From a virus (taxonomy: Duplodnaviria > Heunggongvirae > Uroviricota > Caudoviricetes), in the IMG/VR virus record IMGVR_UViG_2636415418_000001, positions 1 through 33,221 of that record: a stretch of DNA of 33,221 nucleotides, one strand, 5' to 3'. Each line of letters begins with the position of its first letter. Position 1 is the first letter of the stretch. The position numbers and the translations under genes were made by a program. Of the stretch, positions 38 to 31,158 are shown one piece after another. Under the pieces are notes generated by a model. That model had not been told where the DNA came from. It saw only the letters and a program-made list of their open reading frames with translations, and did not search any database.

Positions 38-370
38 TTAGACGTAAATATCAATGGTGCCAGCGGTATTTGTATCGTCTTTTTTCTCTTCTTTTTTATC
101 AGGATGAACTGTCGCGTCTTCATTCTTTTTCTCTGCCTGCTGCCTTAACAACTGCTCCAGTTGAGCCCTGAGGCTTTCAATTTGCTTCTGTACCAATGCA
201 GCCATTTCTTTTTTCTGCTGTGTCGTCATCCCCTCTTCCGATGAGATTTTCCCAAGCTTTTCAGTCAGCACCTGAATTTGTCTTGTGATTTTGGCTATTT
301 CTGATGTTCCTTCCGGGGCGGAGTTGTTTGAAATAACGGTTGAGGTATTTCCCTGAATTGTGACAGACAT
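38..370 (-). CDS. flxA: FlxA-like protein (FliA-regulated, function unknown)
   Basis: 110-aa ORF recognised from memory as FlxA family; AAGGAG RBS and a canonical sigma-28 promoter lie immediately upstream. Confidence 0.6.
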   Translation of the reverse strand: MSVTIQGNTSTVISNNSAPEGTSEIAKITRQIQVLTEKLGKISSEEGMTTQQKKEMAALVQKQIESLRAQLEQLLRQQAEKKNEDATVHPDKKEEKKDDTNTAGTIDIYV

Positions 371-420: not shown

Positions 421-1096
421 ATCGTATTTCTTGTGTCATTAATTGTTTGATGTTCAGATTGTTTTCCTCGCGGGCTGGCGCGCCTCAGAAAGTAAAGCTT
501 GTTGACAGGGGTAAACGTTCGGCAATAATTTTCTGCCGCATGCGGGTGTTGCATAAAACGTGCTACGTTCCTTTATCGACAGGTCAGGTCACCGCTCACC
601 CGCCGACGAGAAAGCAACACTGACATGCTAAAGCAAAAAATAGATGAATAAGTTGAGTTGTGCATATGTAGCCTGACCGTCACAAAGTATATGGTGTCTG
701 TACCAGTAAGATGGTGGCCGGACTCTTTAAAAACGAGCTGACCTGCACAATACAGGATGGACTTAGCAATGGCTGCTCCTGGCACATAGCAGCCCTAGAG
801 ACAGTGGCGTAAAGTCATGGAGGGTCGGTGGCAGGAGATGCAAATCCTCTCATACAAAAATACGTAAAATCAATAACGGCTAGAAATCATTCAATACTCG
901 CACTATCTAACATTTACCAGCCAACCGCAGCACGTCTTGCATACGACCTGTCTGCGGTTTCAATCACCTCTCACCACCAGTCCCATCAATAATAATTAAA
1001 CAGCGCCTAAACAAAATAAATAACAACAAGTCAACAACCTCGACAGGATGCCGATGGGATGATGAAGAGATAAGAAAGAATAACTAGTAAAGCCCT

Positions 1097-1165: not shown

Positions 1166-3115
1166 ATGATTGTTCTAAATCAGATTAACTCCTCACTTTT
1201 GTACAATGTCGCTTACAGGTATACCATGAAATCCGAGACGCTAACTGTCCAACAACTTTTTCAAGACCGCCGACAATACTGCGTTCCATTCTATCAACGT
1301 GCCTATGTATGGACTCAGCGAAACCAATGGTCAGCTCTACTGGAGGATATCCTAGAGAAAGCACAATCCCGGCTCTCGGGTACAAAACCAACTCCCCATT
1401 TCCTTGGTGCAGTGGTACTGGAACCTCAACCAAAAAAAGGATTATTAGGTGTAGATTCCATACATATTATTGATGGTCAGCAACGATTGACCACTCTTCA
1501 ATATGTTCTGGCATCCATCCGATTAGCATTACGTGCGACAGATCTTTCCAACTTAGGGCCTCTCATTTCGTCTTGCCTGAAAAACTCAAACGAAGACACA
1601 ATGCGAAATAAAGAAGTAGAGCGCTTCAAACTGTGGCCAACTTTTCGGGATCAAACTCATTTTATTCAAAGTTTTAATGTTGAAAATATTGACGATATCC
1701 GGAATGTATTCTCTGATAGTTTCACGCAGCATGGTACGTTGCGTAAGCATTTTAATCACCCGCCATCACTAGAAGCATTATGTTTTTTTACTGAAGCCTT
1801 TATAAAGTGGATTAAAATAGAAAATCACTCACCACGAGAAAATGCTGTAGCATTAATTGAGGCTGTCTTGACGGATCTGAAACTAGTAAGCATATTTCTC
1901 GAGGCTGAAGATGACGCTCAAATAATTTTTGAAACATTAAATGGCAGAGGTGCGGAACTTCATGCCACAGATCTTATTCGCAATTATATTTTTATGTGCG
2001 CTGAACATGAAAATATTAATGCTGTTGAATTATATGAGAATGAGTGGAAGATCTTTGAAGATACGTACTGGTCAGAAAGACAACGTCGTGGTCGTATTAA
2101 TAAACCACGCATGGAGTGGCTAGTGCATGCGACATTGCAATCAGAAAGGCAACGTGAAATCGATCTGTCTCGTCTTTACAATGAGTATCGTGATTATGTA
2201 AGTAAGGACTTGCCTTCACAACGAGCAGATCTGCAAGTAAAGCGCCTCAAACAATATGCATCACAATATAAAGAATTGGTTGGTGGTTTTGGCACAACCC
2301 CCATCTCACACTTTGGACATCGCATCGCAGCCTATGATGTGACGACACTTTATCCGCTTGCTTTGTTCATTTCGATAGCTAACATCGCCGATGATGAGAA
2401 AGCAGCCATGTATAATGATCTTGTCTCCTACGTAGTACGAAGAGCCGTATGTGGCCTGACGCCAAAGAATTACAACAATGTATTTATGAATGTATTGCGG
2501 CACTTGTCTAAAACGGAAATTTCCAGTGTTGAGTTACGTAATATCCTCAATAGCTTAAATGGCGAAGCCTCACGTTGGCCTGGGGACTCAGAATTTCTCA
2601 ACGCTTGCATCAATGCTCCACTTTATCCTGGCAGGCTCGACGCACCGAAAATGCGCTCAATGTTAACGGAACTTGAAAGAGAACTTTGTCGCCAAGTGAA
2701 GACAGAGAAGCCTGATGTTCCAAATCTTTCTAACCTCGATATCGATCATCTTATGCCTCAAAGTTGGTATTCCTGTTGGCCTCTCGAAAATGGTCATATG
2801 GTGACAAATTCAGATGCTACGGTATTGAACCAAATTGTTCTGTCTGGAACCGATCTTACCCCTGAACAGCTACTGGTAAGGAAACGGCAACAAGCGATAG
2901 CTACGTTGGGAAATCTAACTTTGCTTAACCTTAGCGTAAACCGTTCTGTTCAGAATGCTGTATTTCTGAAAAAACGTGATGCTCTCATCGTCCACACCAA
3001 TCTACGACTGAACATTCCACTTATAGTTAAGGATAAATGGGATGAGGATGAAATCCTGGAGCGGGGTAAAAAGTTGGGGGAAATTGCATTGAAAGTATGG
3101 CCAAAACACGATTAA
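1166..3115 (+). CDS. DUF262 (ParB-like, DGQQR motif) plus DUF1524 (His-Me/HNH-like) fusion protein; GmrSD-like putative type IV restriction/defence nuclease
   Basis: 649-aa ORF; N-terminal YQRAYVW and IDGQQRLTTL motifs, C-terminal DIDHLMP motif; AT-rich relative to the adjacent tail genes; the ATG at 1226 (MKSETL) is an alternative start. Confidence 0.8.
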   Translation: MIVLNQINSSLLYNVAYRYTMKSETLTVQQLFQDRRQYCVPFYQRAYVWTQRNQWSALLEDILEKAQSRLSGTKPTPHFLGAVVLEPQPKKGLLGVDSIHIIDGQQRLTTLQYVLASIRLALRATDLSNLGPLISSCLKNSNEDTMRNKEVERFKLWPTFRDQTHFIQSFNVENIDDIRNVFSDSFTQHGTLRKHFNHPPSLEALCFFTEAFIKWIKIENHSPRENAVALIEAVLTDLKLVSIFLEAEDDAQIIFETLNGRGAELHATDLIRNYIFMCAEHENINAVELYENEWKIFEDTYWSERQRRGRINKPRMEWLVHATLQSERQREIDLSRLYNEYRDYVSKDLPSQRADLQVKRLKQYASQYKELVGGFGTTPISHFGHRIAAYDVTTLYPLALFISIANIADDEKAAMYNDLVSYVVRRAVCGLTPKNYNNVFMNVLRHLSKTEISSVELRNILNSLNGEASRWPGDSEFLNACINAPLYPGRLDAPKMRSMLTELERELCRQVKTEKPDVPNLSNLDIDHLMPQSWYSCWPLENGHMVTNSDATVLNQIVLSGTDLTPEQLLVRKRQQAIATLGNLTLLNLSVNRSVQNAVFLKKRDALIVHTNLRLNIPLIVKDKWDEDEILERGKKLGEIALKVWPKHD

Positions 3116-3135
3116 TGCAATTAATAAAATGATTA

Positions 3136-3163
3136 TAGCGGCTTTACATTAGTAAGGCCGCTA
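3136..3163. terminator. candidate bidirectional hairpin terminator between convergent genes
   Basis: 7-bp stem TAGCGGC/GCCGCTA with a 14-nt loop, between the DUF262 gene stop (3115) and the pin fragment stop (3211). Confidence 0.3.
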
Positions 3164-3210
3164 CTCACTATTAAATCCTTTAATTTGCAACAAGAACAGC
3201 AGTGTCAGCC

Positions 3211-3365: not shown

Positions 3366-3740
3366 ATGATGCCATTTGCTCGTTATTTCTGCATCTTCAT
3401 AAACGTTGGTTTGGGAGAAGCGGCAAAACGGAATGTGGGAACTGGGGAAAATCAGATACCTGATATGTCATCATATGCATCAGGTTCAGGCTGGCGAAAA
3501 ATGCCAGATGGTTCAATTGAACAGTGGGGACGAATTAGTTTTCCTAGTGAACACGGGCCTGTATCCGCCAATGTTTCATTCCCGATTCCATTTACACAGA
3601 CACCGGGCATTGTAATTGTGTGCGATGGTGGTTTCGGGGGTGGGAATATGTGGGGGGCGACCAACTGGAGCACTACCGGCTTCATAGCTCACTGCAATTA
3701 TGGTCTTGAAGGTGGTGCGTTTTTCGCTAAGGGCTGGTAA
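3366..3740 (+). CDS. alternative tail-fiber C-terminal cassette (S'v-like); silent in this orientation
   Basis: ORF reads through crossover site A in the same frame and with the same NxGLG(D/E) junction as the expressed fiber at site B; Gly-rich C-terminus; Tfa gene directly downstream. Confidence 0.5.
3394..3419. repeat. 26-bp invertase crossover site (gix/hix/pix-like), pin-proximal
   Basis: TCTTCATAAACG-TT-GGTTTGGGAGAA; inverted copy of the site at 5189-5214 (13-nt perfect core TCTCCCAAACCAA); lies in frame in the alternative fiber cassette. Confidence 0.65.
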
Positions 3741-4183
3741 TGATGAAATATCTGTACGTAAACAACCTGGCATATCCTTACGAACTTAAGTCTCTTTATG
3801 TTGAAAAAGGTGAGTGGCCTGAAGAAAAAGGTGTTGATATAGACGAAGTAATTTTCAGGGAATATTTCTATGATACACCACCAGAAGGAAAATACAGATG
3901 TGTCGGAGAAGATGGACTGCCTGCATGGGTAGATATTCCTCCACCAACACGTGAAGAACAAATTGCATCAGCCGAAACTAAAAAGCAGCAATTGATTAAT
4001 CAGGCCAACGAATACATCAACAGTAAACAATGGCCAGGTAAAGCATCAATTGGTCGTCTGAAAGGTGAGGAACTGGTGCAATATAATTTGTGGCTGGATT
4101 ATCTGGACGCACTGGAACTGGTTGATACCTCCAGTGCTCCAGATATTGAATGGCCTACGCCTCCGGCAGTTCAGGCCAGATGA
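3740..4183 (+). CDS. tail fiber assembly protein (Tfa/U'-like) for the alternative cassette
   Basis: 147-aa ORF with a Tfa-family C-terminus (…TSSAPDIEWPTPP), converging on the minus-strand Tfa. Confidence 0.65.
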   Translation: MMKYLYVNNLAYPYELKSLYVEKGEWPEEKGVDIDEVIFREYFYDTPPEGKYRCVGEDGLPAWVDIPPPTREEQIASAETKKQQLINQANEYINSKQWPGKASIGRLKGEELVQYNLWLDYLDALELVDTSSAPDIEWPTPPAVQAR

Positions 4184-4565
4184 CATCCGGCGCAGTGCTG
4201 GTATCTGTTGCCGTCACCGCGTCAATGTAATCCAGCACGGCGTTAAGTCGGGTGGTTTCTGCCTGCGTCAGCTTCCGCCCGGCCTGCAGCTTTAACTGAA
4301 TCACGCTGATATTGACCATTGCTGCGTCTATCAACGACTGTTTTTTCTGTTCAGCGTCAGCTACCAGTTCATCATGAGAACGTTCCGGAGGGAGCGGCGC
4401 AGTAAATACCCCGTCTGAATACGCCCAGCCGATTCCGGGCTGCTCACTGATATCAGAAATATTAATGAGCTGCAGATTATCCGGCACAGTGAATTCATCC
4501 TCGCCATCCCAGACAATGACATTCACAACCATCCCATTTTCAATAACTGCATATGACGCATTCAT
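4155..4565 (-). CDS. tail fiber assembly protein (Tfa/U-like)
   Basis: Start taken at MNASYAV, where the ATG overlaps the fiber TAA; Tfa-family C-terminus (…TSTAPDVIWPELP). Confidence 0.7.
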   Translation of the reverse strand: MNASYAVIENGMVVNVIVWDGEDEFTVPDNLQLINISDISEQPGIGWAYSDGVFTAPLPPERSHDELVADAEQKKQSLIDAAMVNISVIQLKLQAGRKLTQAETTRLNAVLDYIDAVTATDTSTAPDVIWPELPEA

Positions 4566-5491
4566 TATGCAAACTCCTCGATAATACAAACCCCATCAGC
4601 ACCTTTCCCGCCCGTCATACTGGTTCCGCTATAACCTGCATCGTATGCACCACCTCCGCCTGAACCAAATGCCCTGCCTCTAACGCCACCGCCAGCGCCT
4701 GCACGTCCACCGCCTCCCCAGTACGATGCACCGCCTTCACCGCTGACGCTGATATTCCCGGACTGACCGTCGCCTCCATCTCCACCAGTGATGCGGATAT
4801 CGCCAATATTCGGTACGCCTCCGTTACCGCCGTTTGTGTTTGTGACTCCTACTTTTCCGCCGCCTTCACCACCAGGGGCTATTACCGATCCGAACGAGCT
4901 ATCACCGCCCTTGAGGCCGTTCGTCGCACCAACGCCGCCGGCCCCACCTGCGCCGATAGTGACAGGATAACTATTCTGTGTCGGGGTCAGTATGGTGATT
5001 ACTGTCCCTCCGGCCCCACCGCCAGCACCGAAAAACGTTTCGTTACTGGATATAGCCTGGCAGCCACCCCCTCCGCCACCGCCGCCCGTTATTGTGACCC
5101 TGATCCGTTTTGTTTCTGGTGATGGGGTATACGTACCTGATGACGCGAAAGCCCGGGTACTCAGCCGGCGTCCCACGTATCCGCTTGTATCTCCCAAACC
5201 AAGGTTTTGAAGAGCCGTTTTCACCGTGCCGTCCGATTTGATATCGCCAAACGGATTTTTGCGACTTAACAGCAGCGCACGAAGCGCGGTAAGCAGCTGG
5301 TCATGCCGCCCCTTCTCCAGGCTGGCACCGGATGCCTCCACCACGCTGCAGAGCTCCTCCTGCAACATGTCAAAGTAGTCATCATCCAGATCGGTGGCAG
5401 GCGTGCCGGTCTGGGGGTTACCACGGGTAAAACCGTTCTTACCCGCGCCGAACTTATCCTTCTGCGCGGTTTTCGTGTCTATACGATGCAT
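4565..5491 (-). CDS. tail fiber protein (Mu S-like), Gly-rich variable C-terminus
   Basis: 308-aa ORF; constant N-terminal ~92 aa, then crossover site B in frame, then Gly-rich repeats. Confidence 0.8.
5189..5214. repeat. 26-bp invertase crossover site, fiber-proximal
   Basis: ATCTCCCAAACC-AA-GGTTTTGAAGAG, inside the fiber gene where it encodes ALQNLGLGD; inverted partner of 3394-3419. Confidence 0.65.
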
Positions 5492-10552: not shown

Positions 10553-12388
10553 TTACCTGCCAAAGCGCGTATAGCCAACATCATGGCTGACATCAAAACC
10601 GCTGGATCGCGTTTCCATAACCCGCATACCCGGAGGCGAATTCACAAAAGAGACCTTGATCTCACCATCAACTTTTGGCGCAGAAGCTTTGTTAATCATG
10701 AAGGGATTCGGGCCTGTGGCATCGGAGGCGTTGTTTGACTGAGCCGGATCCACCGCCTGATAAGGTGTGTATCCCCGTGCCGGTATTCCCGTCCCATAAG
10801 CATCATAAGCACCCGCGCCCCACTGCGCAGAGTTAATGGCATCGACCGTGTCACCGGAACTGTCGGTAAACCACTCAATAATTGGCTTCAGCTTGTCCCA
10901 CATATCCTGAAACCACTTAACAACCGGTCCCCAGTTATTGATTACCATCCCCAGCGGCGACCAGGCAAAAACCTTCTTCAGAAGTTCCCAGCCAGCCTCA
11001 AAATAAGGACCAATGGTTTCCCAGAGCTTCTTGAAATAAGGTCCGACAACATCCCAGTTAGTGATAATTAATCCCGCAGCCAGGGCTATCGCCGTCGCAA
11101 TCATGCCAATCGGCGTCATCGACATGATCCTGCTGACAATACTGATGGCACCGCCAACGCCCATCAATCCCAGTTTCAGAATCGCAAGACCGGCAGCAAG
11201 CCCGACGACGCCGCGAATAACCCGGGGATTTTCATCCGCAAACTTCGTGAATTTTTCCCCTAACTCCCCCAGCCATTGCGTGATATTTTGGGCGTCACCA
11301 GAAAATGCGCCGCCAATAGCTGCAAGACCGTTAGTTGCGGTCCCCGTCATTGCCTCCCACAGGTTGGACAGCGTACCAAGCTGTGCCTGAACACGTTTAT
11401 TCAGGCTGGCCTGTTTATTCATCTTCTGCTGGATCTGATCGTAACCATCCTTTCCTTTATCGATCAGAGCATTGACCACCTGAAGGGTTTCGGCATCATC
11501 ACCAAATATTGCCTTAAGTACACCTGTTCGCTTAACGTCGGTCAGTTTTCGCAGCTTTGCCAGTTGCTTAAACATGTTATCAAGACCGCCAAAACTCCCT
11601 TTGCCATCAGTAAAATCGAGCTGCACTCCGAGTTTCTGGCGGGCCATGACTTTATTGACGTCCCTGATTTTCTTAACGCTTAATCCGGACTGGATAACTT
11701 TTCGCAGGGCATTACCTGCCGACTCCCCGTTCATCCCCATCTGATCCATCATGACGCTGATAGGGGCAAGGCTCTGTGCAGCCTGAAGTCCGTCCTTATT
11801 CACCATCTTCAGAACAGAACTGGTTTTAGTGAAGAAGGACAACATGTTGGTATCGTCAACGCCCAGATAAAACGCCTTCTGGATAGTGTCGAACAGCCCC
11901 ATCATGTCTTCTGACGCCGTTCCGGTAGCATCCTGCATCTTTGCAGCAAACTCAGCAGCCGCTTCCGGTGTTTTTTTCAGTTGTACCGCAAGATAAGCTG
12001 TCGCTTTACCCACACCACCAAGAATGTTTTCTGCCGGGATCCCCTGACGCACCAGCATCTGCATCATGTTCTGGAAATCAGCCGTTGTACCGGGTAGCTG
12101 GTTACCCAGGCCAATAGCCAGTTTATTGATGTCCTGAAAGCTCTTTCCAACCTCGCCGTTCGCATCCATCATGGCGACTTTCAGCCCGGTGGCGGCGTTT
12201 TCCTGATCGGCATAAGATTTCAGGGAAAGCGTCAGACCCGCTGCCAGTCCGCCACCAAGCGCCAGCCCACCCTGTGACGCTTCTTCCGCCTGGCGTTTAA
12301 ATCCCCGGATTTTCTTTTGCATTTTCGACAGCGCGGGAGAAAGCCTGTCGACACCGGTGATCAACGCCTTAAGCTCAAATTCAGCCAT
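10553..12388 (-). CDS. tail tape measure protein
   Basis: 611-aa ORF, Ala/Gly-rich helical N-terminus and hydrophobic segments, directly downstream of the frameshifted chaperone pair. Confidence 0.85.
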   Translation of the reverse strand: MAEFELKALITGVDRLSPALSKMQKKIRGFKRQAEEASQGGLALGGGLAAGLTLSLKSYADQENAATGLKVAMMDANGEVGKSFQDINKLAIGLGNQLPGTTADFQNMMQMLVRQGIPAENILGGVGKATAYLAVQLKKTPEAAAEFAAKMQDATGTASEDMMGLFDTIQKAFYLGVDDTNMLSFFTKTSSVLKMVNKDGLQAAQSLAPISVMMDQMGMNGESAGNALRKVIQSGLSVKKIRDVNKVMARQKLGVQLDFTDGKGSFGGLDNMFKQLAKLRKLTDVKRTGVLKAIFGDDAETLQVVNALIDKGKDGYDQIQQKMNKQASLNKRVQAQLGTLSNLWEAMTGTATNGLAAIGGAFSGDAQNITQWLGELGEKFTKFADENPRVIRGVVGLAAGLAILKLGLMGVGGAISIVSRIMSMTPIGMIATAIALAAGLIITNWDVVGPYFKKLWETIGPYFEAGWELLKKVFAWSPLGMVINNWGPVVKWFQDMWDKLKPIIEWFTDSSGDTVDAINSAQWGAGAYDAYGTGIPARGYTPYQAVDPAQSNNASDATGPNPFMINKASAPKVDGEIKVSFVNSPPGMRVMETRSSGFDVSHDVGYTRFGR

Positions 12389-12799
12389 GTGTGCGTTTCT
12401 CCTGCTCTATCCTGTTTGCCTGACTGACCAGCAAGGGAATTTCACTGATCGGCATATTCAGCAATTCGAAGGGATTAATGCGCCAGTAACTGGCGCAGTC
12501 AAAGAAGCGATCAGTGAGGTATTCAGCCGTCAGGCCTGGAGGAAAAAACCGGCCACAAGCCACGCCGCTGCATTCAGGTCTGCCGGAGACATCTGGTCGA
12601 CAGAGCTTTGCGGCACTTTCGCCAGCCGCACGATGTATTTCGATACCACATGCGCCAGAAGTCTGACGGACTCATCCTGATTCATCTGGTAGGGATATCC
12701 CAGCTCGCGGACATCTTTCCCGGTGGGCTCATCAAACTCCAGTACGGAGAGTGTCTCGCCATGAGCGGTAATCGGTTTCTTTAACTCAAGCTCTTTCAT
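12381..12799 (-). CDS. tail assembly chaperone, predicted -1 frameshift fusion product
   Basis: Slippery T TTT TTC (plus 12542-12548) lies 3 codons before the stop of the upstream ORF; the -1 frame continues as PPGLTAEY… for about 53 more codons. Confidence 0.5.
12530..12799 (-). CDS. tail assembly chaperone (short product)
   Basis: 89-aa ORF between the tube and tape measure genes, ending just after a slippery heptamer. Confidence 0.65.
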   Translation of the reverse strand: MKELELKKPITAHGETLSVLEFDEPTGKDVRELGYPYQMNQDESVRLLAHVVSKYIVRLAKVPQSSVDQMSPADLNAAAWLVAGFFLQA

Positions 12800-13155
12800 T
12801 ACTGGTAATCCCCTTCTTCACCGTGGAACTCAAGATCGACCGTGCCTTCTTCGGCATTATGGTTCGCTTCGCCGTGCAGCCAGGCAGACGACAGTACATA
12901 GACCTGACCGTTTGCCAGCTCGGCAGTGATGGTCATCTCATCAGACGAGGTGATTTTGCTCACCGGAAAATTCTTCGGCACCTTGAAGGTCCCTTTGACA
13001 TAAGGCGCACGGTGAGTTTCCTTGCGGTCCACTGAACCGTCCAGGCCGATGATGTCATCATTGACCGTCCTGTTCATGGGCACCTCAATGCCGCCGGTCA
13101 GCGATAGCTGCTGACCGTCAATTTTGAAATAACAGGTTCCCCCGATACGGGCCAT
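12799..13155 (-). CDS. tail tube protein (Mu M-like)
   Basis: 118-aa ORF immediately after the sheath gene. Confidence 0.7.
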   Translation of the reverse strand: MARIGGTCYFKIDGQQLSLTGGIEVPMNRTVNDDIIGLDGSVDRKETHRAPYVKGTFKVPKNFPVSKITSSDEMTITAELANGQVYVLSSAWLHGEANHNAEEGTVDLEFHGEEGDYQ

Positions 13156-14651
13156 TATGCAGACTCCTCTGAATACTGAAGACGGAACTGGTTAACCACG
13201 GCAAAGACACGCAACTGGTTAACATAGTCAGGCGGGAACAGCGTGTTCAGGCGGTTCGGATCGCTGGCATCACGCTCCACAACCAGGTACTGCTTAAACA
13301 GTTCGTAGTTTTCCACGATCCCCGCACGCTCAAGCTGACGGTAGGTTGCCAGCAGTTCCCCTTTGATCACCGCCGGGGTGACAATCGCCTGACCGGGACC
13401 AAAGCGGGTACCGTCACTGGCAAGCTTGTGACGCCCGTACTTACTGGTAATGACGGATTTCAGTTTGCGCAGTACATACGCGCTGGTATGCAGTGTCTCA
13501 CTGTCGAGGTAGCTGTTATCCGCAACCCCGTAAGCGTTTTTCCTGTACGTGGTGACATCACGCTGAATGCGCAGTACCCCGCTTTCGACATACGCCGTTG
13601 CCACGCCATGAGACAGCAGGGTCTGTTGTTCGGTCATCGTGAACCGTTTCCCCTTCGGCGCAGGCAGCATACCCACCAGCTCACCGGTCTGCGTGGGACG
13701 TGCCGGATCGTTGCGGATAAACACCGCTGCGCGGGCGGTACGGCTTGCCGCCAGCTCGTCGGCAGGCGTCTGGGTCTCTTTTTCGTATCCCGCCAGGGTA
13801 ATGTGCTGCTGGTTAAACTGGTCACCTGCGGTCACCAGTTCTGACAGCGTGCCGATCTTTGCCGTATACACATGACCATACAGCTGACGCGCATAGCTCC
13901 AGCGACCGCTGGTATCGTTCATCTCGGTCACCAGCGTGTTAACGGAGGCTGTGTCGTTGAACGGCAGGCCGATATAATCAAACGGCTCATCCGCCATTGC
14001 AGCCACCGCGCCGGTGAGAACAGGAGCGCCCGTTCCGGCGGTACCCGTCGCCACGGCAATCTGTACGCCCGCTGGCAGCACTTCGCCCCCACCAAAGCCG
14101 TAGTAATTGAGGCTGACAGGAATTTCATTCCCGCAAAGCCCCTTATGACGCGCGGTCAGTGTGACCACGCCTGCCGAAGATGAGGCAGTAAACGGCAGGG
14201 TCGGAACGGCATTGATGGCATCTTTGATACTGCTGGCAATCGTCGCGACGTTATCGCCGTTGGTCACCGGTGCCTGCACGCGGGTACGTCCCACATAAAC
14301 ATTCACCGTGCCGGTTTCGGTTGCCGCGCCGGTCACCGTCAGCGTAACTGTTGCCGCCGCGCCCGTGGATTCAGGAACGGCAATCACATACAGTTCACCA
14401 AACGGGTCGGTCTGGCGATAAGCCTCGACCATACGCGCCAGCTGACTTCCCGCACCACAAATCTGGCGTGCATAGTCTGCCGATGGCATCAGCACCAGAC
14501 TGTTGGCAACAATCTCTGCACCGTTATTGGCATGACCAATCAGCAGCGATGCTCCGCTGTCCTGTGCAGTATTCGCCGCCGAGTTATCCATTTCCGCATA
14601 AAAAATCGGAACCAGCGTATTCGACGGAATGGTGTTAAAGCTTATCGTCAT
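13155..14651 (-). CDS. contractile tail sheath protein (Mu L-like)
   Basis: 498-aa ORF; size and position fit a myovirus sheath upstream of the tube gene. Confidence 0.85.
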   Translation of the reverse strand: MTISFNTIPSNTLVPIFYAEMDNSAANTAQDSGASLLIGHANNGAEIVANSLVLMPSADYARQICGAGSQLARMVEAYRQTDPFGELYVIAVPESTGAAATVTLTVTGAATETGTVNVYVGRTRVQAPVTNGDNVATIASSIKDAINAVPTLPFTASSSAGVVTLTARHKGLCGNEIPVSLNYYGFGGGEVLPAGVQIAVATGTAGTGAPVLTGAVAAMADEPFDYIGLPFNDTASVNTLVTEMNDTSGRWSYARQLYGHVYTAKIGTLSELVTAGDQFNQQHITLAGYEKETQTPADELAASRTARAAVFIRNDPARPTQTGELVGMLPAPKGKRFTMTEQQTLLSHGVATAYVESGVLRIQRDVTTYRKNAYGVADNSYLDSETLHTSAYVLRKLKSVITSKYGRHKLASDGTRFGPGQAIVTPAVIKGELLATYRQLERAGIVENYELFKQYLVVERDASDPNRLNTLFPPDYVNQLRVFAVVNQFRLQYSEESA

Positions 14652-14805
14652 CGGTATTCACCTTTTTATTCACGCGCCGGATATCACCCGCTGCTTCACG
14701 GCGCAGCCAGTAGTTGTTCTCATCAACATTTCGCCCCTCGGCGGGCAAAAGGTCGCCGCGGGCAGGGTCAGGAACTGACCGCCCTTTAACAGGTTTCACA
14801 AACAT
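14635..14805 (-). CDS. small hypothetical protein (56 aa) upstream of the sheath gene
   Basis: Unlisted ORF that I translated by hand; overlaps both neighbours; could be spurious. Confidence 0.25.
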   Translation of the reverse strand: MFVKPVKGRSVPDPARGDLLPAEGRNVDENNYWLRREAAGDIRRVNKKVNTDDDKL

Positions 14806-14813
14806 GAAGATTC

Positions 14814-15374
14814 TCAGGAAGGAAGGGTTATTTCGGTGTGATGTTCGATATCGCCGTCAGGCCCGTTACCGGGATCGAGATAATCAACATCAATCGCCAG
14901 CGTTCGCAGTTCATCCAGACTGTTCAGGTCATCCTGCTGGCGGGTATCGTCTTCGGTCAGCTCGCTGATGACCGAAAAATCGAACTGATAAATCAGCTCA
15001 TGACGATTCAGATCCAGCAGCGTGCCGCCGTCATAAGTAATCGGGTTACCGCACGCTTCCGGGTTCCAGCCCAGAATGGCCTTAAAGAGCATCTGCCGGA
15101 CATCGTCCACCACATCATACGAGGCAAACTGACCGCGCTCATCACGCCCGTTACTCAGTATGACAACCACGGAGAAACCCTCTTTCAGCTCCTGCCAGTA
15201 GTCGGTCTGGCTTTTGTTTTCTCCCGGAGAGTCATCACCCGGTACCACATACGCCGCCGGGAGTCTCAGCTTTCCGACCTCCGGCAGATTTTTGAACTGT
15301 GCCGCGCCTGCCACCCGGTTTTCAAAATACGGGCAGCGGGCACGCAGCGCAGCAATAACAGGCGTCAGTTTCAT
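14814..15374 (-). CDS. tail completion/terminator-like protein (Gp37-like)
   Basis: 186-aa ORF between head-completion genes and the sheath gene. Confidence 0.5.
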   Translation of the reverse strand: MKLTPVIAALRARCPYFENRVAGAAQFKNLPEVGKLRLPAAYVVPGDDSPGENKSQTDYWQELKEGFSVVVILSNGRDERGQFASYDVVDDVRQMLFKAILGWNPEACGNPITYDGGTLLDLNRHELIYQFDFSVISELTEDDTRQQDDLNSLDELRTLAIDVDYLDPGNGPDGDIEHHTEITLPS

Positions 15375-15889
15375 CTGCGTCGTCGCTCCGGCTTCAGTGA
15401 TTTACGTAATTCCCGCGCCAGAAAATAGCGTGTCCAGCTGCGGTTCTTTTCAAGCGTTTCCACCATGAAGTTATTACGTGGAGCCAGTCGCCAGCCGCTG
15501 CCACCGGATGCACCACGATGATGGCTGCGACGACGCTTTGCCCCTCGCCTCACGCCATAGAACAAAAAAGCCGGATAAAAATCACCGGTGATACGGCGGT
15601 TTCCCTCTCCATTACGCTGGTTAGGGGCTATACGTGCCATAAAACCAGGGCGATGTTTACTGGCTCTGGGTACCATATACCCAATCGAACGTGCCAGGCG
15701 TCCGGTCTGATAACCGGGGTTTTCACCCGGTGCCGACCGCGCACGGCGCATCACCAGCCGACGGGCATCACGCATATGACGCTGACCAATCGTGACAAAC
15801 GCCCGCCGGACACGGGCGCGGTTAAAGCGCATCTCCGCGGGCTGCTGAAAATCAACGTGCAAAAAGGAAGTCGTCATTGTTGCCTCCAT
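15371..15889 (-). CDS. HK97 gp10-like virion morphogenesis protein
   Basis: 172-aa basic protein in the head-tail joining cluster. Confidence 0.45.
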   Translation of the reverse strand: MEATMTTSFLHVDFQQPAEMRFNRARVRRAFVTIGQRHMRDARRLVMRRARSAPGENPGYQTGRLARSIGYMVPRASKHRPGFMARIAPNQRNGEGNRRITGDFYPAFLFYGVRRGAKRRRSHHRGASGGSGWRLAPRNNFMVETLEKNRSWTRYFLARELRKSLKPERRRR

Positions 15890-16262
15890 GACTCTGCCTA
15901 TATTCGCCCAGCTCCGTACACTCCAGCAGCAGAAAGCGCCGCGCCCCGTTCAGATCGCGCTGACGTTTCACCCGGTACACACTGTCATCACAGACCACCT
16001 CATAATCAGCAGTGATCCCCCGGCGGTAGCGAATGGTGATGTAATGGGTGATGGCGTCCCCGGTCTGCGCGGTTTCCTGCCAGGTGGTGGCACTGGTCTG
16101 GATAACCTTCGCCCATGTCCGGAACGTAACCGGGTATTGAGACTCCACACCAAAGTTATCCGCGGGCATATCCACCCGCTGGCGGATCAGGACGCGTTTA
16201 TTCAGTTCACCGGGGTCCGGCAGAATGTAGGTTGCGCTGGTCTGCGCCTGACGAATTTTCAT
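15852..16262 (-). CDS. head-tail adaptor / head closure protein
   Basis: Position after the connector gene; the true start may be an internal ATG. Confidence 0.5.
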   Translation of the reverse strand: MKIRQAQTSATYILPDPGELNKRVLIRQRVDMPADNFGVESQYPVTFRTWAKVIQTSATTWQETAQTGDAITHYITIRYRRGITADYEVVCDDSVYRVKRQRDLNGARRFLLLECTELGEYRQSHGGNNDDFLFAR

Positions 16263-16582
16263 TGCGGAAAGTACCTGTACGGGCCGACAAGCCAGCCAAA
16301 ACTCTGCGGCATGTCGAGTTTCTCCACTTCCGTAACCGACGAGCGGTTTTCGTAAAAATGGCTGATAAGCATCAGCATCCCCAGGCGAATATCATCCGGC
16401 AGGTGCAGCCCGTCTGGATCGCTGTCCGGAATGGTTTCATCCGGTGCATAGAGCTTCCGGTTCAGATACGTTTCCGTCCGCTTTTGCGCCGCACAGGCCA
16501 GCAGTTGCAGATGGCGGTCATCAGCATCGAAATCCTCATCCAGCCGGAGTTGGGCTTTAATCTCTTCCATTGTCAGAAGCAT
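16259..16582 (-). CDS. gp6-like head-tail connector protein
   Basis: 107-aa ORF in the usual position downstream of the capsid gene. Confidence 0.6.
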   Translation of the reverse strand: MLLTMEEIKAQLRLDEDFDADDRHLQLLACAAQKRTETYLNRKLYAPDETIPDSDPDGLHLPDDIRLGMLMLISHFYENRSSVTEVEKLDMPQSFGWLVGPYRYFPQ

Positions 16583-16584
16583 AC

Positions 16585-16785
16585 TCAGCCCTCTTTACTG
16601 GTCGTGGCTTTTTTCTCTTTTGCCGCTTTACTGCTTTTTGCACTGATTCCGCGCTCTGCTAACCCGGCCTGAAGTGCAATCTCCTGCACCCGGGCAGGAA
16701 GCGCCCCGTCGTCATACTCACCGGCCCGAATGACCTCAACACGCATACCGTCCGGTGACCATTTCAGATCTTGTTTCAGGATCAT
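16585..16785 (-). CDS. small hypothetical head-module protein
   Basis: 66-aa ORF between capsid and connector genes with a weak RBS. Confidence 0.35.
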   Translation of the reverse strand: MILKQDLKWSPDGMRVEVIRAGEYDDGALPARVQEIALQAGLAERGISAKSSKAAKEKKATTSKEG

Positions 16786-16806
16786 GATTCTTCACCCGTC
16801 AGAACA

Positions 16807-16827
16807 GGGGGCGCGGTTCCGCGCCCC
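16807..16827 (-). terminator. GC-rich stem-loop just after the major capsid gene
   Basis: Perfect 9-bp inverted repeat GGGGCGCGG-TT-CCGCGCCCC about 8 nt past the capsid stop; no U-run follows. Confidence 0.4.
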
Positions 16828-16834
16828 TGAGTGA

Positions 16835-18040
16835 TTACGCCGCTGCAATCTTCAGCAGTTTGATGGCCTGCGAATCGACCAGCATCCCGCCGGTGCGCTT
16901 GGTGGTATAAAAACCGACAAACGGTTTATTGGTGTACGGGTCACGCAGAATGCGGGTGCCGATACGGTCAACGATGGTGTAACCCCGTTTGAAGTTACCA
17001 AATGCAATGGCTTTCGCATCAGCGGCGATATCCGGCATCTGTTCGTTTTCAGCGATACCGTAACCCGCCAGAGAGGACGGCTGCCCCAGCTCCAGCCCCG
17101 GACGCCACAGATAGTTACCCTCGCTGTCTTTCAGCAGACGGATGGCAAACAGGCTATTGTTGTTCATCATGAACTTCGCGCCGGTGCGGTGTGCCTTACG
17201 CAGCGTGTAAATCAGTTTGATAATGGCGTCTGCGGTCACCGCCGTCGCGTCGCCGGATACAATATGCTGAAGTTTGCCGAACGCCCGGACCTTATCGGTT
17301 TCATCCGTGGATTCATACGCCAGGAACCCTTTCGGCTTCTTGGTACCATCGCCGGTGGTAAAGGCAATTTCTTCCTGTTCAGCAAATTCGGTCGCCAGCT
17401 CGCTGTTGATCCAGGCCTCCACGTTGAAGAAGGCATCATCCAGCATTTTCTGAGTGGCCTGCGGGTTACCGTAGATTTCCCCCATGAAAGGTTCAATCAG
17501 GCCCAGTTTTGAGGTGGCAGTCTGGGAGCGCGCGTCAGTCTCGCCAACCCATCCGGAAGCCGTGCCGCCCAGATTCACCAGTTTTTTGTAGTCGGAACCA
17601 CCAACGGTGATCACCGTGGCTTCCTGACGCATCACCACTTCATCTTTCAGCAAGGTCAGAATGTTGCGATCCAGCGCTTCCGGCACGGCATAGCCACCGT
17701 CTTCATCGGTGCCCACCTGTAATGCCTTGCGCTCCAGATCGCGCAGACCATCTTCACGGCCTTTACGCAGGAAGCCCACAAACGCTTCTTTATGCTCGGT
17801 GGCCAGTTTATTTTGCGCACCACCTGCCGGACGTTTCAGCTCAAGCAGCTCTTTTTCAAGGTCGCTTTTGAGGTTTTCCAGCTCGCTGAGTTTTCCGTTC
17901 AGGGTTTCCACCTGCCCGGCAAGTTTGCCTTTTTCCTGCTCAATCGCCTCAACGCGCTTGTCGTTCTTTGCTTTGAAGTCGTCAAACTTCTGCTGCAGCT
18001 CCTGCGCGACCTGTTCGACATCTTTAATATCAACTGCCAT
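16835..18040 (-). CDS. major capsid protein (HK97 fold)
   Basis: 401-aa ORF following the prohead protease; coiled-coil N-terminal delta-like region. Confidence 0.9.
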   Translation of the reverse strand: MAVDIKDVEQVAQELQQKFDDFKAKNDKRVEAIEQEKGKLAGQVETLNGKLSELENLKSDLEKELLELKRPAGGAQNKLATEHKEAFVGFLRKGREDGLRDLERKALQVGTDEDGGYAVPEALDRNILTLLKDEVVMRQEATVITVGGSDYKKLVNLGGTASGWVGETDARSQTATSKLGLIEPFMGEIYGNPQATQKMLDDAFFNVEAWINSELATEFAEQEEIAFTTGDGTKKPKGFLAYESTDETDKVRAFGKLQHIVSGDATAVTADAIIKLIYTLRKAHRTGAKFMMNNNSLFAIRLLKDSEGNYLWRPGLELGQPSSLAGYGIAENEQMPDIAADAKAIAFGNFKRGYTIVDRIGTRILRDPYTNKPFVGFYTTKRTGGMLVDSQAIKLLKIAAA

Positions 18041-18054
18041 CGTATTTCTCCTGA

Positions 18055-18741
18055 TTAGAAGTTCAGATTTTTCAGTGCATTCAGTGCAGAGCCCACATCC
18101 TCAGCGTCGCGCAGGGACAGTGCGCCATAGCCCCCGGCCATGAATGCTTTGGCCTGGGTACGGGAGAGTCCGACATCACGCAGGACTCTTTCGATTTTTT
18201 TCTGTTCGGGGATTTCCCCGCGGGCCAGTGCGTTCTTGACGTCGCTGATCCGCGCCTCGTCGTTAGACGGGAATGTCACCAGACTGACTTCCCAGAGGTC
18301 GATTTCTTTCAGCAGAAAGGCTTCTTTCGTCCGGTCGTATTCCCAGTCCTTCAGGACGTACCCAATAGAAAGGCCGGTTAACGAACCGGCCTTCATGTGT
18401 GCATGTGCGCGTTTTGCGAGGGGATCATCATCAATAAGCAACCGTCCCCTGACGTAAAGCCCGACATCGTCTTCCTTCATTTCGGTGTAAACACCGATGG
18501 GTTCATCCATGCGGTGCTGCCAGAGCAGCGCAGGTAACGCTTTTCTGTCACTCCACGCCCGCAGGGAAGCAGCAAATGCCCCGGACATCACCACATCATC
18601 GTGGCTGTCCTTTACACCAAAGACGGAGCCATACCCTTCAAACTCACCGGAGTCACTGACAGATTTCAGACTCAGCGGTACATCAAGACGTTGTTTCGTC
18701 TGCATTGGCGTTATCCTTCTGCTTACCGGCTTTACTGCCAT
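18055..18741 (-). CDS. prohead protease (HK97 family)
   Basis: Position between portal and capsid; true start probably the internal MQTKQ. Confidence 0.75.
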   Translation of the reverse strand: MAVKPVSRRITPMQTKQRLDVPLSLKSVSDSGEFEGYGSVFGVKDSHDDVVMSGAFAASLRAWSDRKALPALLWQHRMDEPIGVYTEMKEDDVGLYVRGRLLIDDDPLAKRAHAHMKAGSLTGLSIGYVLKDWEYDRTKEAFLLKEIDLWEVSLVTFPSNDEARISDVKNALARGEIPEQKKIERVLRDVGLSRTQAKAFMAGGYGALSLRDAEDVGSALNALKNLNF

Positions 18742-19924
18742 CGGAGGGTTTCGTGGTCATGTTCATCGGTGTGAGATAGACATCCCCACCGGGACGCGGA
18801 TTCATATCTTCCAGGTCGCGGCAGTCATTGGGAGAGTAAATTCCCCAGTTAATCCCGGTGGCGTAGGCTTCAAAACGGGACTTCATATCCCCGCGCAGTA
18901 ACGCCCCGGCGTTAAATTTGGCGTAATAAACGCCCTGCTTACTTTTTCGTACCAGTCCGGTGTTGATCCGCTGCTCAATGCGGGTCAGATACGGCACCAG
19001 TGAATAGTTGATAAATCCGAGCCCCAGCTCTTCGATATTGTTGAAGGTGGCGCGATCGGTGTTCTGCACCATGTGCAATGGCACACGGAACAGACGACAA
19101 ATTTCTTCAAGCTGAAACTTGCGGGTTTCCAGGAACTGGCTGTCCTCTGCGTTCAACGCCATCGACTTCCAGTCCAGCCCCATCTCAAGGATCATCGGGC
19201 GGTGAGCATTGCCAAGCCCGGTGTGACGCTCCTCAAAATCTTTCTTCAGGCGCTCATAAGCCTGATCCGACAGCGTCTGCTCTGTACGCAAAACACCCGA
19301 CGTCACCGCGCCATTGCTGAACAGTCTGGCCCCGTGCTCTTCGGTCGCTGCCGCCAGCGATATTGCCTCGCGGGCATAGGCGATGGGATTCAGCCCCACC
19401 AGTCCGTCCAGCGTCAGCGTACGCACATGCCAGATATCCTCCTGGCTCAGTACATCCGTGGAGCCATCCGGGAATGTGACCTGATAGACCGGCTCCCAGC
19501 TACTGTTAAGCTTCGGTACCACACAGCCGGGATCGACGGGCAGCAGTTCAGCCACTTCGCCAAATGCTTTCACTTTGTAGGCGTAAAAGTTTCCCCGCAG
19601 GCACAGACAGGTGACCACCAGCTCCCAGAACTCCTGCGGCGTCATATAGCCATTGGGATGCGTGGAGATCAGCTTATGCAGACGTTCGCCAGTGGCTCTC
19701 TGCTTCAGGCTGCCGTTCAGGTGATACAGGTTGCAGGGCAACATCCCGACCGACTCCGCCAGCACCCTGACACAGGAAAAAACCGCCGTCAGTCGCATGG
19801 CCCGCTGGCTGCTGATCTGCTTTCCGGTATAGGTGTCGTAGGACAACCCGATAGCATCCGCCAGCTCTGCTGGCGTGGTCACCGGTGCGTCACTTTTTCG
19901 TTGAAATAATCCCGAAAAGAACAC
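18683..19924 (-). CDS. portal protein (HK97 family)
   Basis: 413-aa ORF downstream of the large terminase. Confidence 0.85.
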   Translation of the reverse strand: MFFSGLFQRKSDAPVTTPAELADAIGLSYDTYTGKQISSQRAMRLTAVFSCVRVLAESVGMLPCNLYHLNGSLKQRATGERLHKLISTHPNGYMTPQEFWELVVTCLCLRGNFYAYKVKAFGEVAELLPVDPGCVVPKLNSSWEPVYQVTFPDGSTDVLSQEDIWHVRTLTLDGLVGLNPIAYAREAISLAAATEEHGARLFSNGAVTSGVLRTEQTLSDQAYERLKKDFEERHTGLGNAHRPMILEMGLDWKSMALNAEDSQFLETRKFQLEEICRLFRVPLHMVQNTDRATFNNIEELGLGFINYSLVPYLTRIEQRINTGLVRKSKQGVYYAKFNAGALLRGDMKSRFEAYATGINWGIYSPNDCRDLEDMNPRPGGDVYLTPMNMTTKPSDGSKAGKQKDNANADETTS

Positions 19925-20106
19925 TATTTACCTCCGCCGACAGACGACTGTGTACGGTCGAGATATCGCGCCACCAGCCACGACCAGAACAGGCACAACG
20001 CCCCGGCAACAACAAACCCCGCCGGGGGATAAATCAGCCAGGCACCATACGCCAGCAAAAGCACCCCCAGCACGCCCACCAGAGGCGCGAGAATCAGCAT
20101 GATCAT
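19924..20106 (-). CDS. small membrane protein (two predicted TM helices)
   Basis: 60-aa hydrophobic ORF filling the terL-portal gap. Confidence 0.4.
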
Positions 20107-20117
20107 AATTACCTCAG

Positions 20118-21851
20118 TTAAAGCGAGCGGATCCCGTAGGACTCAATGTGGTCGGACAGCGTGTCTTCTTTCTCATACAGCATGGCTCTGCCAACCGCCA
20201 TAATCAGCGCAACTGCACCATCGATTTTGTTTTCCGCCTGCTCTTTGACGGGCTTCACCACATCATCGTTACCCGGAATGGTTTTGCCGACCACGTTGCC
20301 GATACACCAGGTCATGATGGGATTGCCATCATGATGAAAGCGCCCCGATTCAATTGCCGCTTCCAGCTCTTTCATCGGGTCGGACATGTTGGTGTAGTTC
20401 TGAATGATGGTGATGGGATTCAGGTCTTCATCAGCAAGGTCATGTGACAGCCCGGTCGCCCCGAAGGGGTCGATGGGTGACTCGCTGACCGGGCTGATTT
20501 TGTTCGCCGCTTTGGCCTCTTCGAGGATGTAGCGATAATCCACCTCTGCACCATCGGTAACGGTCAGGACGCCCATTTCCACCCATTTCTGAAAGCGTTC
20601 GGCTGTCCGGCGATCTTCATTTTTCTCGACGCTGTACACCGTGTCATACGGTACCCAGAAACGCGGGGCCACACTGTAGTAATGCGTTTTACCGTCAATC
20701 TCGCGGGTATAAAGTCGCGCCATGCTGTTCATATCCAGCTTACGGGCCAGGTCAAAGGCCAGAATGCACGGCTGCCCCTCGAACTGCTCAAGGGTCAGTG
20801 ATTTATCCTCGCAGCTCTGCCAGCTCACCAGGTTGAAATACGCCGAACGCGCCGACACCCAGATATTGAGGTGTTTTGTTTTAAAGACGTTTGCCAGACG
20901 GGCGTTATTTTTCGCACGCTGCTGCTGACTTAACAAAAATTCGCGATAAACCGACACGCCAATATTCGGGTTAGCTTTTTCCAGCACCTGCGGGTCGGTC
21001 CAGTCATCGCCTTCGTCAACGGTATAGATGATCCCGAACAGTTCATCGTTGGGTACCGACCCGTTGAGCATCTCGATAACTTCCCGTCGCTTGTCGTAGC
21101 ACGGCCCCTCAATGTTGTACCCGGCAGTAGTAATGGCCCACATCAGTGGCTGACGTCGCGCCCCCATCCCGGTAAGCATCGTGGTGTAAAGCGCATCGGT
21201 GGCGTGCTCGTGATATTCATCCACCACCGCACAGTGGGGTGATGAACCATCACCGGGGTTACCGATCAGCGGTTCAAACCGCGCGCCATCCTCCGGACGA
21301 TTCATGTTTGAGGCGTTAACCTCAATCCCGAACGCTTCCGTCAGCATGGGTGTGCGTTTACACATCAGTCGCGCCGGGCGAAAGACTTCCCACGCCTGTT
21401 TCTCTGTCGTGGCACCGGAATACACTTCCGCGCCAAACTCGTTATCACAGGCAAAACAATACAGGGCAACACCGGCAGAGATTGCCGATTTGCCGTTCTT
21501 ACGGGGGATTTCGGTATACACCTCCCGGAAGCGGCGCAGCCGGGACCCTTTATTGACCCAGCCAAACGCACAGCAGACCACAAATAGCTGCCACGGCTCC
21601 AGCGTGATGGGCATCCTCTTGAATGCCCACTCACCCTTGGTGTGCGGCAACAGCTGAATAAATTTGGCGGCCCGTTCAGCCAGGTCCTTGTCGAAGCGGT
21701 AACGAAACGACTTACTTTTTTCCGCCATCAGGTCATCAAGATGGCGCTGGCAGGCCTGAATCACAAACTGGCAGGCCACAATCTTTCCGCGCACAACATC
21801 ACGGGCATACTGATTGGCAGCATTTACGTTGGGGTAAGATTTCCGGCTCAT
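20118..21851 (-). CDS. terminase large subunit
   Basis: 577-aa ORF; ATPase and nuclease-like regions, overlapping terS by 4 nt. Confidence 0.9.
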
Positions 21852-22342
21852 GACTCGATGATTTTCAGAAACGGGTTAGTGGCTTTCTTCTGCCCCGCCA
21901 GGCCAATCAGACGCTGGCGGCTGCTGGGGTCGAGTCCGAGCATTGCCCCCGTGCTGCTCATCTCGGACTCCTGTTCTTTTTTGGCGGTCAGCTCCGGATT
22001 TTTGACCCTGCCGCCCATTGCACCGGTGATGGTGTTGCCCTGTATGGCAATATTTTTCACGGCACGTCGCCAGAACTCATAGGCCACGCACCACCGCTCA
22101 AGTACCGCCAGGTCAGTCACGCACAGCAGGCCCTGACCGCAGAGTTCTTTGGTTGTCAGTTGCCACATGATCGTGGCGAGAGGGAGATCTTCTTCAGCGA
22201 ACCACTCTGGTGGCTCAACACCTTTGATGGGCGTAAAAACAGGTTCATCTTTGTTCAGGGCTCGCTTGCCGGGGTTTCCGGCCAGCGCCTTGCGCGCCGT
22301 TGGCTTGGGGCGACGCCCGGAACGCCCCGCCGTTCCAGCCAT
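21848..22342 (-). CDS. terminase small subunit (P27-like)
   Basis: ATG at 22342 has an AGGAG RBS; the track ORF begins 3 codons earlier at a GTG. Confidence 0.75.
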
Positions 22343-22467
22343 ATGCGGCACTCCTGGTTAAATTTCATTTTTCGCGGGTATAAAAAAACGATGGGGCGGG
22401 CAGTCCGGAAGACGTCAGGTCACAGGGATTTGACCCGCCCCTCCCCTCTGGCAGTGGGAACTGGTTC

Positions 22468-22875
22468 TTACTTCAACCGTTCACGGGCCGTCTTCGCCTT
22501 ATGACACGGCCAGCACAGACTCTGCAGATTACTGTCGGCATCAGTGCCGCCATGTGCTTTAGGGATGATGTGGTCAACGGTTTTCGCCTCGCGCACCACA
22601 CCGGCACGCAAACACAACTGACACAGGCCTTTGTCACGCTTGAGCACACGTTCACGGATAACATCCCATTTCGCACCATAACCGCGCTGGTGTCGGGACT
22701 GGCCTGGCTTGTATTGCTTCCAGCCTTCGCTTTTGTGGCTTTCGCAGTAGCCTGACGGGTCTGTGGTGGTATTACGGCAACCTCGAGCACGGCAGGCTTT
22801 CGGGATACGAGGAGGCACTTTATTACCTTGATTATTTATAGGGTTAAAATAAGTATATTCGCAAAAAACATTCAT
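22468..22875 (-). CDS. HNH endonuclease (terminase-associated)
   Basis: Cys-rich HNH motifs; a GTG with an AAGG RBS is an alternative shorter start. Confidence 0.8.
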   Translation of the reverse strand: MNVFCEYTYFNPINNQGNKVPPRIPKACRARGCRNTTTDPSGYCESHKSEGWKQYKPGQSRHQRGYGAKWDVIRERVLKRDKGLCQLCLRAGVVREAKTVDHIIPKAHGGTDADSNLQSLCWPCHKAKTARERLK

Positions 22876-22894
22876 TGATTATGAGAATCAAAAA

Positions 22895-23758: not shown

Positions 23759-23830
23759 GTCCGTCTCCTGTGATTAAGCTAATAGTAATTTAGCATTATC
23801 TTATACGAACGTGGAGTGTCATCTATAGAT

Positions 23831-25056: not shown

Positions 25057-25159
25057 TGTTTCGCCGCCGACAAAAGGCCGGGACGTTAAATGTCAGAAAT
25101 CAGGCTCACGGGGTAATTTAACGACAAAGCACGGAGTTGATGCTCCCCGCAAGCCTGGA

Positions 25160-31140: not shown

Positions 31141-31158
31141 AGAGCGTGAAATGGAAAT

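Follow-up and report, generated by a model that had tools for sequence, protein, structure and literature searches.

The window analysed here is the whole of a 33,221-nucleotide stretch of a Caudoviricetes virus (IMG/VR record IMGVR_UViG_2636415418_000001). Near its left end lies a large gene, gmrSD, which has a flxA-like gene and a ydfV fragment on one side and an invertase remnant and an invertible tail-fibre segment on the other. The features of this region, from left to right, are:

38-370: flxA-like gene.
573-788: ydfV fragment (ydfV').
883-3204, plus strand: low-GC (41%) gmrSD cassette common to different prophages, delimited by blastn against UTI89, APEC O18, PK8276 and E700025.
1127-1154, plus strand: promoter-like site (TTAACC-16-TATCAT) from a consensus scan, ~70 nt 5' of the ATG at 1226.
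1166-3115, plus strand: maximal open reading frame, 649 residues, intact.
1166-1225, plus strand: in-frame extension of 20 codons within the maximal frame, probably 5' UTR and non-coding.
1226-3115, plus strand: gmrSD coding sequence, assigned to a single-chain type IV modification-dependent restriction endonuclease, 629 residues plus stop.
1247-1993, plus strand: GmrSD_N/DUF262 (ParB/Srx-like NTPase) domain (PF03235, E = 5.2e-34).
1472-1486, plus strand: DGQQR nucleotide-binding motif.
2576-3082, plus strand: GmrSD_C/DUF1524 His-Me (HNH) nuclease domain (PF07510, E = 5.2e-20).
2744-2791, plus strand: catalytic residues D507-H508 ... N522, at positions equal to those of Eco94GmrSD.
3116-3204: non-coding spacer between the gmrSD stop codon and pin'.
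3138-3161, plus strand: imperfect hairpin (GCGGCTTTAC-ATTA-GTAAGGCCGC) 3' of the gmrSD stop codon, read from the sequence.
3205-3339, minus strand: pin', a pseudogene remnant of the serine invertase gene pinE, comprising the first ~45 of 184 codons with a 1-bp deletion near the junction.
3401-3418, no strand assigned: left crossover (pix-like) site of the invertible tail-fibre segment, one arm of an 18-nt inverted repeat.
5190-5207, no strand assigned: right crossover (pix-like) site, inside the tail-fibre gene at 4565-5491 (minus strand).

Translation of gmrSD very probably begins at the ATG at 1226, for a protein of 629 residues. We prefer this codon because it is the RefSeq start of the identical gene in strain 127 (WP_032193087.1), because Eco94GmrSD is also 629 residues long, and because two other alleles, those of PK8276 and E700025, are interrupted by an in-frame stop directly 5' of the equivalent ATG. 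The 649-residue reading from the ATG at 1166 was dropped on account of these stops. The initial annotation had assigned the entire span 1166-3210 to the gene; the open reading frame is real, but the gene ends at 3115 and the remaining ~95 bp to 3210 are non-coding spacer.

The two domains that had been claimed for the protein, DUF262 with a DGQQR motif and DUF1524, were both recovered in a Pfam HMM search, well above the gathering scores. The GmrSD_N match spans residues 28-276 of the 649-residue frame and the full length of the model (1-199), and the GmrSD_C match spans residues 471-639. The DGQQR motif, whose definition and role have been described (PMC4619093), falls at residues 83-87 of the 629-residue protein. 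In PADLOC, the type IV methyl-directed model mREase_IV (PDLC03655) matches with 1438 bits over 629 of 629 positions, beginning at residue 21 of the long frame. No NCBIfam model matched the protein, and a PDB sequence search with E values up to 10 returned a single entry, 9jfl, a DUF262 protein (1.2e-07, N-terminal domain), but not BrxU or SspE.

For comparison with characterised enzymes, we used the sequences of the CT596, Eco94 and UTI89 GmrSD proteins that He et al. 2015 give in their supplement (PMC4437046). All three align with the window protein over 629 residues without a gap, with an identity of 94.1% (37 differences) to both Eco94GmrSD and CT596 GmrSD and of 96.3% (23 differences) to UTI89 GmrSD. 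The architecture that had been described as GmrSD-type is, at 94-96% identity to these three enzymes, that of GmrSD itself, and we assign the protein as a bona fide GmrSD, beyond merely GmrSD-like. Eco94GmrSD (E. coli STEC_94C, WP_000834395), like the single-chain CT596 GmrSD, is the prototype of type IV enzymes restricting glc-hmC DNA. The window protein shares with it the length of 629 residues, the DGQQR motif, the D507-H508-N522 residues and the genomic position: in both cases the gene lies just past the tail-fibre genes in a prophage of the SfII/e14 type and has an invertase fragment next to it. It differs in its N-terminal third, which is of another lineage and contains 28 of the 37 substitutions within the first 204 residues, and in the replacement of K280 by threonine. 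As a result, its IPI* sensitivity and the range of phages restricted may differ from those of the prototype. UTI89 GmrSD (UTI89_C2960, the "UT enzyme") has an N-terminal third of the same type as the window protein and an identical gmrSD-pin' junction. It differs in its middle portion, where the window protein (residues 330-559) agrees with Eco94 at 8 diagnostic positions, and in the location of its prophage, at ssrA as opposed to thrW for the prophage that matches the gmrSD part of the window.

Residues E271, E273, E278, D505, D507, H508, C517, N522, N528 and N535 are all kept in the window protein. The three glutamates of the ExEx4ExK motif (E271, E273, E278, K280) are thus retained, and the lysine is a threonine. 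This motif was flagged as important in Eco94GmrSD, for which only the double mutant E278A/K280A was assayed and had little or no activity (He et al., PMC4437046). Further widespread alleles have the same threonine, among them an E. albertii allele and one seen on 134 contigs, and by this comparison T280 is not a private lesion of the window allele.

The gene was found in 306 of 5,426 complete E. coli genomes (~5.6%), covering at least 80% of its length in 300 of the 306. Identity is at least 99% in 69 of these genomes, 95-99% in 154 and 90-95% in 83, and the exact window protein occurs on 316 contigs. Megablast gave no match to gmrSD in the phage GenBank collection, and the gene was therefore seen only in chromosomal prophages. 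Some copies are disrupted, by an IS1 insertion in KTa005 and by a frameshift in the 1891-nt copy of APEC O1, which fits the known toxicity of GmrSD. Among four alleles (window, UTI89, PK8276 and E700025) the whole-gene dN/dS is 0.12-0.17, a range that points clearly to purifying selection. Divergence along the gene is uneven. Over the first 210 codons, dS between the window/UTI89 type and the CT596/Eco94 type is ~0.6, compared to 0.05-0.2 for the remainder, and dN/dS of this N-terminal part is 0.11-0.14. Such a pattern is consistent with recombinational exchange of an old N-terminal module; positive selection as the source of the N-terminal divergence is not supported, given the low dN/dS combined with a very high dS. 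The window allele appears to be a natural chimera, in which an N-terminal third of the UTI89 type is combined with a middle portion like that of Eco94 and with T280.

Beyond the spacer, gmrSD converges on what is left of pin. On the minus strand, 3216-3339 matches the initial 124 nt of intact pinE at 97.6% identity, and weaker homology reaches ~3204/3205, possibly 3194, and covers 136 nt of K-12 pinE. The abrupt end of invertase homology that had been placed at 3211 thus lies within ~10 bp of the measured breakpoint (~3204/3205). The fragment still matches Pfam Resolvase (9e-09) and carries the RefSeq label "missing C-terminus". A complete invertase of ~184 residues, with a resolvase domain and a C-terminal HTH, is absent, about 41-45 N-terminal codons being left. 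The breakpoint is identical in UTI89 and APEC O18, with the prophage at ssrA, and in PK8276 and E700025, with the E700025 prophage at icd. The PK8276 prophage with gmrSD has a different baseplate module and adjoins a retron Ec67 gene. In total, the gmrSD-pin' breakpoint was found in prophages at four sites, thrW, ssrA, icd and one beside a retron Ec67 gene, and a 251-bp junction probe was covered to at least 80% in 289 genomes, close to the 300 with gmrSD. Sister prophages without gmrSD have an intact pinE of 555 nt. In CH423, whose gmrSD-less prophage is also at thrW, genes for a GIY-YIG protein and an AraC regulator come after the full pinE; in K-12 e14, mcrA comes next, and after it the att end at icd'. 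We take the invertase to be ancestral because these sister prophages keep it, full-length pin being present among the relatives.

The initial annotation had drawn an analogy with e14, which carries McrA beside pinE, and this relationship proved to be one of homology. The gene order in K-12 e14 is ymfQ, the invertible segment, pinE, mcrA and icd'. When the E700025 prophage at icd is compared with it, homology runs through icd' to the att end, breaks, and restarts at pinE nucleotide 136, so that 2,779 bp with gmrSD stand in place of 1,584 bp of K-12 (mcrA and the 3' part of pinE). The E700025 cassette therefore sits exactly in the mcrA slot. McrA and GmrSD occupy homologous slots between pinE and the att end, and both are HNH-type type IV restriction enzymes carried as prophage cargo. 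McrA is, however, an unrelated protein of 277 residues that targets 5mC/5hmC rather than glc-hmC, and the orientations differ: mcrA and its intact pinE neighbour point the same way, gmrSD and the truncated pin towards each other.

The DNA around gmrSD had been described as AT-rich and foreign, and its low GC content is evident: 41.4% for 789-3215, while the structural genes at 5500-20000 have 55.6%. Of the two edges of the shared block, the right one is fixed and the left one lies at 763, 883 or 1015 of the window, depending on the partner locus. The promoter-like block at 1127-1154 is conserved across alleles in a four-locus alignment; its role as a promoter is putative, the site being a consensus-level call. 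The hairpin at 3138-3161, which received no call in the terminator scan, is a possible candidate terminator. An Rfam scan of 1-5600 yielded chance-level matches alone, far under the gathering scores. The gene is likely expressed from its own promoter, as a self-contained low-GC cassette of ~2.3 kb.

The position at the end of a prophage that had been proposed for the gene agrees with its context in strain 127, which matches the window at 100% identity over the initial 11.5 kb. The integrase of the strain 127 prophage adjoins tRNA-Thr (thrW, beside proA), and a 63-bp thrW att repeat lies ~2.4 kb left of the window start, that is ~3.6 kb left of gmrSD including an IS3 copy. The repeat was not found inside the window. 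Between the att repeat and gmrSD, strain 127 carries a small "4-fold beta flower" gene, the IS3 copy, the flxA-like gene and the ydfV fragment. The gene thus belongs to the cargo stretch, which has the tail-fibre/invertase module on one side and the attachment site on the other.

The activity of close relatives is well documented. Eco94 and CT596 GmrSD catalyse NTP-stimulated (ATP) cleavage of 5hmC and glc-5hmC DNA, the D507A, H508A and N522A variants of Eco94GmrSD are inactive, close relatives restrict T4 delta-ip1 more than 10^6-fold, and GmrSD is toxic on over-expression (He et al. 2015, PMC4437046). A single cloned gene is sufficient for restriction, as already demonstrated for the Eco94 and CT596 enzymes. 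Inhibition of close relatives by the injected T4 protein IPI* is also published. By homology, the DUF262 (ParB/Srx-like) N-terminal domain of the window protein would bind and hydrolyse NTPs through DGQQR, and the DUF1524 His-Me/HNH domain (D507-H508-N522) would cut DNA containing 5-hydroxymethylcytosine or glucosyl-hydroxymethylcytosine. This would shield a lysogen against T-even phages, except those that inject a matching IPI*-type inhibitor. A structural model for this mechanism is likely provided by BrxU, including its ATP-driven switch from dimer to monomer. BrxU is a GmrSD-family enzyme from the BREX island of E. fergusonii pEFER, has the same DUF262 and DUF1524 architecture, and yielded the first structure of the family; it cleaves modified DNA in an NTP-dependent manner and changes from dimer to monomer on an ATP-driven switch (PMC8565348). 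We infer the enzymatic activity, substrate range and inhibitor sensitivity of the window allele from its sequence, and it is highly likely that 1226-3115 encodes a functional single-chain GmrSD, a type IV enzyme carried as cargo of an e14/SfII-type prophage.

One alternative is that the allele is inactive or decaying, kept in sequence and no longer restricting phage. K280T falls within a motif whose E278A/K280A double mutant is nearly dead, UTI89 GmrSD, the nearest of the characterised relatives, showed no in vitro activity after purification even though its strain does restrict certain T-even phages (PMC4437046), and the toxicity of over-expressed GmrSD, together with the disrupted copies in KTa005 and APEC O1, would accord with loss of function. 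Against this, the frame is unbroken over its 629 codons, the identical protein occurs on 316 contigs, dN/dS between alleles is low, every catalytic and DGQQR residue is kept, and T280 is common to several frequent alleles, all of which makes decay improbable. A second alternative, that the protein is of the BrxU or SspE type and acts within a larger system (BREX, or phosphorothioate sensing by Ssp) as opposed to working alone, is less probable still, to the point of being negligible. The initial annotation had grouped the protein with GmrSD, BrxU and SspE alike, and of this grouping only GmrSD proper holds. The two-domain architecture is alike, and PADLOC SspE models do match, but only in the N-terminal part, over ~100 residues (22-131, E = 1e-15 to 1e-9); no full-length SspE match (~750-790 residues) was obtained, and the top PADLOC match is the stand-alone type IV model at full length. 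BrxU is only about 13% identical to GmrSD, lies within a plasmid BREX operon and has a broader substrate promiscuity (PMC8565348). The flanks of gmrSD in the window consist of the flxA-like gene, ydfV', pin' and tail-fibre genes and contain no BREX genes, nor were any ssp genes found near gmrSD, and the cassette transfers alone between prophages. A functional, stand-alone GmrSD remains the reading that we adopt.

The history of the locus can be read in two ways. The gene had been thought to be inserted into pin, and a clean insertion into an intact pin, for example by transposition, would have split the invertase gene into halves and would explain why pin homology stops abruptly where low-GC DNA starts. 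The truncation of pin beside gmrSD is indeed evident, but the 3' half is missing beyond gmrSD: none of the 3' ~420 nt of pinE was found in a search throughout window positions 1-3215. Furthermore, neither a transposase nor terminal repeats were noticed around the cassette, its left edge differs among loci, and at icd it takes the place of mcrA and of the 3' portion of pinE, all the way to the att end. We consider a clean insertion very improbable. As no 3' half of pin lies beyond gmrSD, the 3' part of the invertase gene and the old downstream cargo were replaced, and the comparison of loci indicates that pin is truncated once, by replacement. In the scenario we favour, one ancestral event would have put the cassette at the att-proximal end of a prophage, replacing the 3' three quarters of pin and the cargo downstream of it, which in the e14 case is mcrA; the cassette with the attached pin stump would then have spread by recombination among related prophages.

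Much of this context is already known. He et al. 2015 (PMC4437046) reported the Eco94GmrSD gene immediately 3' of the tail-fibre genes of an SfII-like prophage, and likewise in UTI89 and APEC O1, and tail-fibre and invertase neighbours have been published for the CT596, Eco94 and UTI89 genes. The gene described here thus represents one allele of an enzyme whose characterisation dates from 2007 and 2015. Neither He et al. nor Machnicka et al. mention an invertase truncated at a conserved breakpoint, and the passages covered here do not equate the locus with the mcrA slot of e14. The conserved pin breakpoint and this slot equivalence are small additions and do not amount to a new kind of system. 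About 5.6% of the complete E. coli genomes carry the prototype GmrSD family, in the form of a fixed cassette joined to a pin stump, and the sharing of the mcrA slot is a clear example of type IV restriction enzymes swapped at one prophage cargo site. In practice, the gmrSD-pin' junction can serve as a marker for locating such loci.

A point of some value is whether the allele types differ in the T-even phages and inhibitors to which they respond. Since its N-terminal third is of the UTI89 type, a UT-like profile would be the better guess for the window allele, that is, insensitivity to IPI* and restriction of T2/T6-like phages but not T4. It is also conceivable, though rather unlikely, that the chimeric allele has its own mix of substrate range and immunity to the T-even inhibitors IPI*, IPII and IPIII, with, as a secondary element, a tail-fibre switch that may need invertases supplied in trans. 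If true, the two diverged N-terminal lineages would mark a module under a phage-host arms race.

The tail-fibre segment itself is still delimited by the 18-nt inverted repeat at 3401-3418 and 5190-5207, whose arms are 94% complementary and which we take to resemble the crossover sites of Gin/Pin. The retention of these sites beside a pin stump could mean that the switch relies on invertases acting in trans.

The type IV restriction gene gmrSD is heterogeneous along its length. Its first ~210 codons (1226..1855) fall into two deeply diverged lineages with a dS of about 0.6; the remainder of the gene (1856..3115) is much closer between alleles, with a dS of 0.05-0.2. Since dN/dS is low along the whole gene, comparison of the alleles indicates that this ~210-codon N-terminal part is an exchanged module. 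Broken copies of gmrSD also occur. The copy in KTa005 (NZ_CP147084.1) is interrupted by an IS1 insertion, and the 1891-nt copy in APEC O1 (NC_008563.1) is disrupted, its product having been given as 604 aa by He et al. (PMC4437046). These copies are consistent with the enzyme being costly or toxic.

The cassette consisting of gmrSD and the remnant of the pin invertase gene (pin′) is also found in the PK8276 prophage (NZ_CP080146.1), which differs from the window in its baseplate module, with a DUF2612 protein and a different gp47-type protein. An integrase and a reverse transcriptase/endonuclease of the retron Ec67 family lie roughly 1 kb away from the PK8276 cassette, so that two defence genes are next to each other.

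Both crossover sites of the invertible tail-fibre segment (3401..5207) are kept despite the truncation of pin. UTI89, PK8276 and E700025 carry the same pin stump, and the segment in UTI89 is oriented opposite to that in the other two. Either invertases acting in trans kept the inversion going, or prophages of both orientations acquired the cassette by recombination.

The window is mosaic relative to strain 127, the differences lying in 11500..33221. The two are 100% identical up to 11.5 kb and 98.9% identical from there to about 22.8 kb, beyond which the lysis and early region of the window differs from that of strain 127. Genes for lambda-type O, P and Q lie in this divergent region, together with one for a YdaT-domain protein and one for the following repressor:

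31428..32183, S24/HTH repressor

Two further genes were considered as possible cargo:

27641..28453, minus strand, TIR-domain protein of 270 aa (PF13676, 8.5e-20; domain N-terminal)
22895..23758, minus strand, DUF6236 protein of 287 aa (PF19749, 2.9e-31)

The TIR-domain gene has a lambda-P-like replication gene on one side and a NinB-like gene on the other, and its product gave weak matches only in PADLOC (TIR-NLR, 2e-07). It may represent a second defence or counter-defence cargo in this gmrSD prophage. The DUF6236 gene separates the Rz lysis gene from the packaging genes, and a PADLOC search with its product returned no match; it looks like moron-type cargo with no assigned function.

Between gmrSD and the att end are two features, whose names (flxA and ydfV) are known from the K-12 Qin prophage:

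38..370, minus strand, flxA-like gene (PF14282, 5e-15)
573..788, minus strand, ydfV fragment

In strain 127, an IS3 copy is located directly to the left of the position matching the start of the window.
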